A DNA stretch of 64,000 bases from Escherichia coli (GTDB lineage Bacteria > Pseudomonadota > Gammaproteobacteria > Enterobacterales > Enterobacteriaceae). The translations under genes were made by a program, and so were the position numbers. Positions 46,173-46,457 of this stretch are shown here, piece after piece. The notes beneath the pieces were generated by a model. It made no database searches and was not told the origin of the DNA. It saw only the letters and a list, made by a program, of their open reading frames with translations. The first letter of the stretch is position 1, and every line of letters starts with the position of its first letter. The DNA lies in assembly GCF_013315695.1 (NCBI RefSeq), contig NZ_CP054353.1. The stretch is one strand, 5' to 3'.

Positions 46173-46339
46173 TGTTCTCTTCTTCAGGTTAAAAAATAAG
46201 GCGCAACGAAGATAACAAACCGCCGCGTTTAATGAAATGAGCAGCCTCTCCCTGACGCAAATTTTGCACAAAAAATAGGCTTTAGTGATTTGTTTTTGCT
46301 CAAAATCATACCAAATCCGTGATCTGGGTAAAAAAAAGG

Positions 46340-46367
46340 TTGCATGAAAACGCGAGCGGAGTATAGT
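46340..46367 (+). promoter_or_regulatory. sigma70 promoter of the tRNA-fMet cluster
   Basis: TTGCAT, 16-bp spacer, TATAGT, followed by GC-rich discriminator GCGCATCC typical of stringently controlled stable-RNA promoters; about 13 bp upstream of the first tRNA. Confidence 0.7.
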
Positions 46368-46380
46368 GCGCATCCACGGA

Positions 46381-46457
46381 CGCGGGGTGGAGCAGCCTGG
46401 TAGCTCGTCGGGCTCATAACCCGAAGGTCGTCGGTTCAAATCCGGCCCCCGCAACCA
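46381..46457 (+). tRNA. metZ: initiator tRNA-fMet (anticodon CAT)
   Basis: CGCGGGGTGGAGCAGCCTGGTAGCTCGTCGGGCTCATAACCCGAAGGTCGTCGGTTCAAATCCGGCCCCCGCAACCA; C1/A72 mismatch and three G-C pairs in the anticodon stem are initiator hallmarks. Confidence 0.97.

Follow-up and report, generated by a model that had tools for sequence, protein, structure and literature searches.

The membrane-bound lytic murein transglycosylase A of E. coli K-12 (MltA; b2813, NP_417293.1; MLTA_ECOLI) is an outer-membrane lipoprotein with lytic transglycosylase activity (PMC13174416, citing Lommatzsch et al. 1997). According to the same source, a 2026 preprint, signal peptidase II cleaves E. coli MltA between residues 20 and 21, and D328 is an essential catalytic residue. 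In K-12, tcdA lies downstream of mltA and the divergent metZWV genes lie upstream; metZ, metW and metV are labelled as initiator tRNAs in the MG1655 record. Kapoor et al. (PMC3017606) mapped two promoter-down mutations of metZWV, one in a T inside the Pribnow box and the other in a G immediately 5' of it. Longest-ORF over-annotation, in which the most upstream in-frame ATG, GTG or TTG is taken as the start and the real start is internal, is a well-known artefact.

The DNA analysed here, referred to as the window, is a stretch of 64,000 nt from E. coli contig NZ_CP054353.1. Its mltA gene has the same neighbours and the same 208-nt upstream spacer as K-12, with a few polymorphisms in the spacer. 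The locus is the textbook mltA–metZWV region of E. coli; the phenomenon described below is already known and holds no new biology. A six-frame ORF list places a longest ORF of 459 aa with a TTG start at 45075..46454 (minus strand). The first-pass annotation had described this ORF as reading antisense through the promoter and gene of a tRNA-fMet, and coordinates, ARAGORN and Rfam all agree with that description. It had also placed the lipoprotein signal at codon 95, giving a 365-aa MltA, and this was borne out by PGAP, the K-12 record, the NCBIfam profile NF008366, the PDB chains and the identity to the K-12 protein. The 459-codon ORF is almost certainly a longest-ORF artefact, with the true start at ATG 46172 and a 365-residue prolipoprotein as the product. 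The features of the region, and the excess codons of this and the other over-extended ORFs of the window, are listed in Table 1.

Table 1. Features of the mltA–metZWV region, and codons by which the longest ORF exceeds the annotated gene in the window.
Feature	Coordinates	Strand	Description and evidence	Excess codons
mltA CDS	45075..46172	-	365 codons + stop; membrane-bound lytic murein transglycosylase A; PGAP, K-12 annotation, NF008366, Pfam	94
Lipoprotein signal peptide and lipobox Cys21	codons 1-20, 46172-46113; Cys21, 46112-46110	-	lipobox L-A-A-C, read from the translation	
Extension of the longest ORF, almost certainly spurious	46173..46454	-	94 codons; non-coding by codon usage, no family, open frame not conserved	
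mltA–metZ spacer with predicted divergent promoters	46173..46380	.	208 nt; same length in K-12; cross-genus alignment	
Invariant 15-nt block CGGTTTGTTATCTTC (plus strand GAAGATAACAAACCG)	46208..46222	-	36-50 nt upstream of the mltA ATG	
Alternative promoter-like site	46305..46332	-	TTTACC-16-TATGAT with TG; consensus scan	
Putative metZWV promoter	46340..46367	+	-35 TTGCAT 46340-46345, 16-nt spacer, -10 TATAGT 46362-46367	
metZ, initiator tRNA-fMet1	46381..46457	+	ARAGORN; Rfam 61.4 bits; = K-12 metZ	
metW, initiator tRNA-fMet1	46491..46567	+	ARAGORN; Rfam; = K-12 metW	
metV, initiator tRNA-fMet1	46601..46677	+	ARAGORN; Rfam; = K-12 metV	
Hairpin + U-run after metV, probable operon terminator	46686..46729	+	-20.9 kcal/mol, z -5.9	
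xni				30
PRD-domain antiterminator				19
csdA				12
fucK				10
gudD				8
amiC				5
fucR				3
PGDH-like gene				3
recB				3
MalY/PatB				2
fucO				1
ygdI				1

The ATG at 46172-46170 is codon 95 of the 459-aa ORF, and from this codon the ORF reads MKGRWVKYLLMGTVVAMLAACSS..., a protein of 365 aa. Over these 365 aa the window protein is 100% identical to K-12 MltA, with the same signal peptide, lipobox and D328; by this identity it is assigned as an outer-membrane lipoprotein lytic transglycosylase. The PGAP reference used was E. coli MSB1_4I (NZ_LR898874.1), which is 100% identical over the mltA region; there, mltA measures 1098 nt, equivalent to window positions 45075-46172, and starts at ATG 46172. 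The curated K-12 MG1655 record, which is independent of PGAP, likewise has an mltA gene of 1098 nt (365 aa) with the same start. The 365-aa sequence falls in an MltA-named cluster with 3893 members, MLTA_ECOLI among them.

The first-pass annotation had proposed alignment to curated orthologues as a check, and both the profile and the K-12 record begin at codon 95. The NCBIfam equivalog NF008366 (murein transglycosylase A) scored 681.2 bits (cut-off 242), and its positions 1-365 (of 366) aligned with ORF residues 95-458. Since profile position 1 falls on residue 95, the curated orthologue profile starts exactly at ATG 46172. Two Pfam domains, the MltA-specific insert domain PF03562 (2.1e-37) and the C-terminal 3D domain PF06725 (1.2e-24), were found, both wholly inside the 365-aa part. 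The solved structures of E. coli MltA have the same sequence as the window protein, and their chains (2gae, 2ae0, 2pi8 and others) start with the lipobox cysteine (Cys115 of the long form, Cys21 of the short one) or with the residue after it (115/116 in long-ORF numbering). The 365-aa form has C at residue 21 and the catalytic D at residue 328; the numbering of PMC13174416, with cleavage after residue 20 and D328, therefore fits only this form.

Lipoprotein signals were scored by the pattern [LVI][ASTVI][GAS]C following a positively charged n-region and a hydrophobic core. The N-terminus of the 365-aa form, MKGRWVKYLLMGTVVAMLAAC, has an n-region with K2, R4 and K7, a hydrophobic core and then L-A-A-C21. 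This signal peptide is N-terminal only if translation starts at ATG 46172. The stretch MKGRW...LAAC(S/T)SKP is kept in Enterobacter, Cronobacter, Phytobacter and E. albertii. ATG 46172 is preceded by a poor Shine-Dalgarno match (GAAGAAGAG, -2.9 kcal/mol), so that the ribosome-binding site by itself is insufficient to settle the mltA start. This weak pairing, together with a second Met at residue 11 (MKGRWVKYLLM), would suit a true start downstream of ATG 46172, for instance at M11 of the signal peptide. A start at M11 would, however, strip the charged residues K2, R4 and K7 that the lipoprotein signal peptide needs; MKGRW(V/A)KYL is kept in all five genera, NF008366 begins at the first Met, and PGAP and K-12 agree with it. 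We consider a downstream start very unlikely, and ATG 46172 is retained.

The excess of the longest ORF over the real mltA is exactly 46173-46454, and it comprises 74 nt antisense to metZ and the whole 208-nt spacer. The extension peptide contains LRGPDLNRRPSGYEPDELPGCSTPRPWMRTILR.... Coding potential was measured as a codon log-odds (in-frame against off-frame codons), trained on 42 annotated genes of the window with mltA excluded. The extension scored -0.27 bits/codon, alike in its antisense-tRNA part and its spacer part (-0.28 for the latter). Windows of 94 codons from real genes (n = 434) had a mean of 0.347, a standard deviation of 0.11 and a minimum of 0.038, and none was as low as the extension; mltA itself scored 0.38, and off-frame windows had a mean of -0.61 bits/codon. 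A Pfam search with the 94-aa extension alone returned no match at E<=1, and the 459-aa sequence was not found in a collection of ~15 billion proteins. At TTG 46454 no ribosome-binding site was recognized, the pairing with the 3' end of 16S rRNA being +3.4 kcal/mol, or -1.2 in a wider search window.

On the sequences compared, the strongest evidence against a coding extension is comparative. Orthologous loci from Enterobacter roggenkampii, Cronobacter, Phytobacter and Escherichia albertii were obtained by exact look-up of cluster members. All four carry a divergent tRNA-fMet ~205 nt upstream of mltA, and in all four an in-frame stop lies 19-40 codons upstream of the mltA ATG, well short of the tRNA. 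Within E. coli, the open frame is retained in four of six sequences (the window, K-12, O157:H7 and strain 23556), a retention that carries little weight because nucleotide identity within the species is 97.7-100%. In E. coli 2013C-3033 a 1-bp deletion in the spacer closes the upstream frame after 36 codons, and the accession of the MltA protein is unchanged. When the genera are compared, the spacer shows indels of 1, 2 and 4 nt, with only short promoter-like blocks conserved. Indels that are not multiples of three, together with block-wise conservation, form the pattern of regulatory DNA and not of coding sequence.

The spacer was aligned in six sequences from five genera. On the tRNA side, none of the six varies in GTTGCA or GAGTATAGTGCGCATCCACGGA. 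The putative -10 hexamer of metZWV is followed by a G+C-rich stretch, GCGCATCC, and then by position 1 of the tRNA at 46381; an A-tract (46331-46338) lies just 5' of the -35 hexamer. The amplicon primers of PMC3017606 map to about window 46030-46402, and the two promoter-down mutations fit gTATAGT. The exact assignment of the metZWV hexamers is a prediction that we infer from the sequence. A consensus promoter scan did not report the metZWV promoter; its -35, TTGCAT, matches the consensus in only 3/6 positions.

On the mltA side, the 15-nt block CGGTTTGTTATCTTC is invariant across the five genera of the alignment, including Escherichia, Enterobacter, Cronobacter and Phytobacter, and its flanks diverge. 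The block can be read as an extended -10, TGnTATCTT, at 46217-46209 on the minus strand. The chances seem to us about even that it represents a so far undescribed extended -10 of an mltA promoter, or else the binding site of an unknown regulator of this abundant lytic transglycosylase. It is the only element here without a textbook explanation, and is of minor interest. The alternative site at 46332-46305 is a weaker candidate for the mltA promoter, since it is not conserved across genera; its -10-like hexamer is TATGAT here and CATGAT in K-12. With either candidate, the mltA transcript would begin downstream of TTG 46454. Experimental transcription starts of mltA and metZ were sought in the supplements of E. 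coli TSS papers, and none was found there. A terminator-like match in the spacer (46327-46311, minus strand) was no better than shuffled sequences and was discarded.

The invariant block lies where a hidden small gene or uORF on the mltA strand (46173-46380), such as a leader peptide regulating mltA, might be sought, and within the extension there is also an in-frame ATG, which encodes the M of ...RPWMRTIL.... Yet the spacer holds no conserved ORF, the positions of the in-frame stops vary from genus to genus, and what is conserved are short blocks of the kind seen in promoters or operators; the negative codon log-odds of the spacer part and its lack of a family match point the same way. We regard a hidden uORF as highly improbable, and read the spacer as promoter DNA.

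The frame upstream of ATG 46172 is free of stops for 117 codons and reaches the second tRNA gene, metW. This open stretch is an outlier in the window, where the next longest upstream stretches measure 42 and 37 codons; a few such stretches would be expected in a genome of ~4500 genes. When the 208-nt spacer was shuffled by mononucleotides, it was stop-free in the mltA frame in 315 of 20000 shuffles (1.6%). Read antisense, the tRNA lacks stops in a single one of the three frames, which happens to be the one in phase with mltA; the corresponding pseudo-peptide, RGPDLNRRPSGYEPDELPGCSTPR, turns up in the ORF list for each of the three tRNA copies. The mltA frame thus runs by chance through the spacer, then through antisense metZ and into metW, and the rule "first ATG/GTG/TTG after a stop" picks the most upstream start-type codon, TTG 46454, inside the tRNA gene. 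The extension is almost certainly untranslated, made up of regulatory DNA and of a tRNA gene transcribed from the opposite strand, with the mltA and metZWV promoters probably lying back to back in the spacer.

A long MltA isoform, begun at TTG 46454 or another upstream codon and anchored in the membrane by an internal signal peptide, could draw on the frame being open for 117 codons and kept in K-12, O157:H7 and another lineage, and on the ~1.6% chance of an open spacer, but is extremely improbable: the extension has non-coding codon usage and lacks a ribosome-binding site, the 459-aa protein is absent from the 15-billion-protein collection, NF008366 starts at residue 95, the transcript would have to start inside or beyond the tRNA gene on its antisense strand, and the comparative data (stops that interrupt the frame in four sequences from other genera or species as well as in one E. 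coli strain, and cross-genus indels that are not multiples of three) effectively refute it.

The three tRNA genes were identified by ARAGORN as tRNA-Met(CAT), and the copies are identical to each other. They have the features of initiator tRNAs: the anticodon is CAT, CGCGGGG faces CCCCGCA so that C1 is left opposite A72, and the anticodon stem UCGGG/CCCGA has three G:C pairs (G29-G31:C39-C41). All three genes, and the promoter block, are identical to those of K-12 metZWV. After metV the two genomes differ: in K-12 amiC follows after 73 bp, whereas the window has a five-gene insertion of 5.6 kb and low G+C content. The terminator-like hairpin after metV sits in this non-K-12 sequence, at the start of the island. 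The number of tandem tRNA-fMet copies beside mltA varies, with one in E. roggenkampii, one in E. albertii, two in Cronobacter, three in Phytobacter and three in E. coli; these differences may in part be due to repeat collapse in draft assemblies. An apparent loss of metZWV in an ST648 genome (NZ_CP008697.1) was set aside as assembly collapse of the 110-bp tandem repeat, there being a single N exactly at this place and no tRNA annotated.

Longest ORFs and annotated starts (PGAP; curated K-12) were compared for 49 genes of the window, of which 13 were over-extended (Table 1). The warning in the first-pass annotation that starts from naive longest-ORF calling should not be trusted in this window is thus justified. 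Similar overcalls had been named for gudD, fucK, fucR, csdA, amiC, recB, xni and the IS4 transposase; the first seven were found again, and the last depends on the reference chosen. That list lacked fucO and ygdI, as well as three genes of the metV-adjacent island: the PGDH-like gene, MalY/PatB and the PRD antiterminator. The mltA case is an instance of the well-known artefact, but is unusually long when compared with the other overcalls of the window (94 against 1-30 codons), and its overlap with a tRNA gene makes it exceptionally simple to dismiss.

The start of the NCBIfam equivalog coincides exactly with the annotated start in fucR, csdA, amiC and the PRD protein. For xni, profile position 2 falls on residue 32, and extrapolation by one position gives the annotated start; the profiles of gudD, fucK and recB start a few residues from the annotated start. 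No guidance on the start came from the profiles for the PGDH-like gene and the IS4 transposase. Shine-Dalgarno pairing was stronger at the annotated start in 11 of the 13 cases; it was equal for fucO and favoured the longer form for the PGDH-like gene. Several K-12 protein records have version numbers above 1 (xni/ygdG.4, fucO.2, fucK.2, ygdI.2 and amiC.4), which would fit past revisions of the sequences.

The IS4 transposase is annotated by PGAP in its longest form (448 aa, TTG 5643), whereas K-12 insG has 442 aa and starts at ATG 5625; Shine-Dalgarno scores do not discriminate between the two. A strong hairpin with a U-run is located just within the end of IS4 (5615-5670, minus strand; -23.5 kcal/mol, z -6.1). 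TTG 5643 falls within the 3' arm of this hairpin and the U-run ends 3 nt before ATG 5625, an arrangement that mildly favours the ATG start.

These results matter as quality control only: about a quarter of the longest-ORF starts in the window are wrong. The six-frame track misleads on protein lengths, on N-terminal signals (MltA, the Tat signal of AmiC, YgdI) and on intergenic and promoter assignments. An ORF antisense over a tRNA gene is a cheap and reliable flag of an overcall. Several ORFs of the track also overlap RNAs recognized by Rfam and count as further artefacts, among them a 71-aa ORF (23209..23424, plus strand) over CsrB and a 97-aa ORF (42041..42334, plus strand) next to or over GcvB. 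The Rfam matches themselves (CsrB 23263-23622, minus strand; GcvB 41852-42057, plus strand; Phe leader 3468-3593, minus strand) are at the expected K-12-like positions. A 613-aa shadow ORF with an ATG start (27308-29149, minus strand) runs antisense to sdaC and sdaB (plus strand, 27335-28624 and 28682-30049) and has no annotation in PGAP or K-12, which is a further reason to distrust the six-frame track.

The 5.6-kb insertion (46678-52243) lies directly 3' of metV, has a G+C content of 0.41 against 0.51, and stands in place of the metV–amiC gap of K-12. Its five genes, all on the minus strand, encode a PGDH-like dehydrogenase, a KpsF/GutQ-type isomerase, a MalY/PatB-type lyase, a PTS EIIC and a LicT/BglG-type antiterminator; no integrase was found in 46678-52243. 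The metV-proximal end of the island is covered in 553 of 5426 complete E. coli genomes (~10%).

At the other end of the window (1-5700), aroF and tyrA (plus strand), pheA and its Phe leader (minus strand) and raiA (3696-4037, minus strand) abut an IS4 copy at ~4261-5686, which abuts eno on its other side. In K-12, raiA and pheA lie ~170 kb from eno. In MSB1_4I, which is 99.98-100% identical over the parts compared, IS4 is present at both loci in opposite orientation. An inversion of ~185 kb between inverted IS4 copies appears to have taken place in the genome of the window. The same pheA–raiA–IS4–eno junction is found in strain TW10690, at 98.8% identity.
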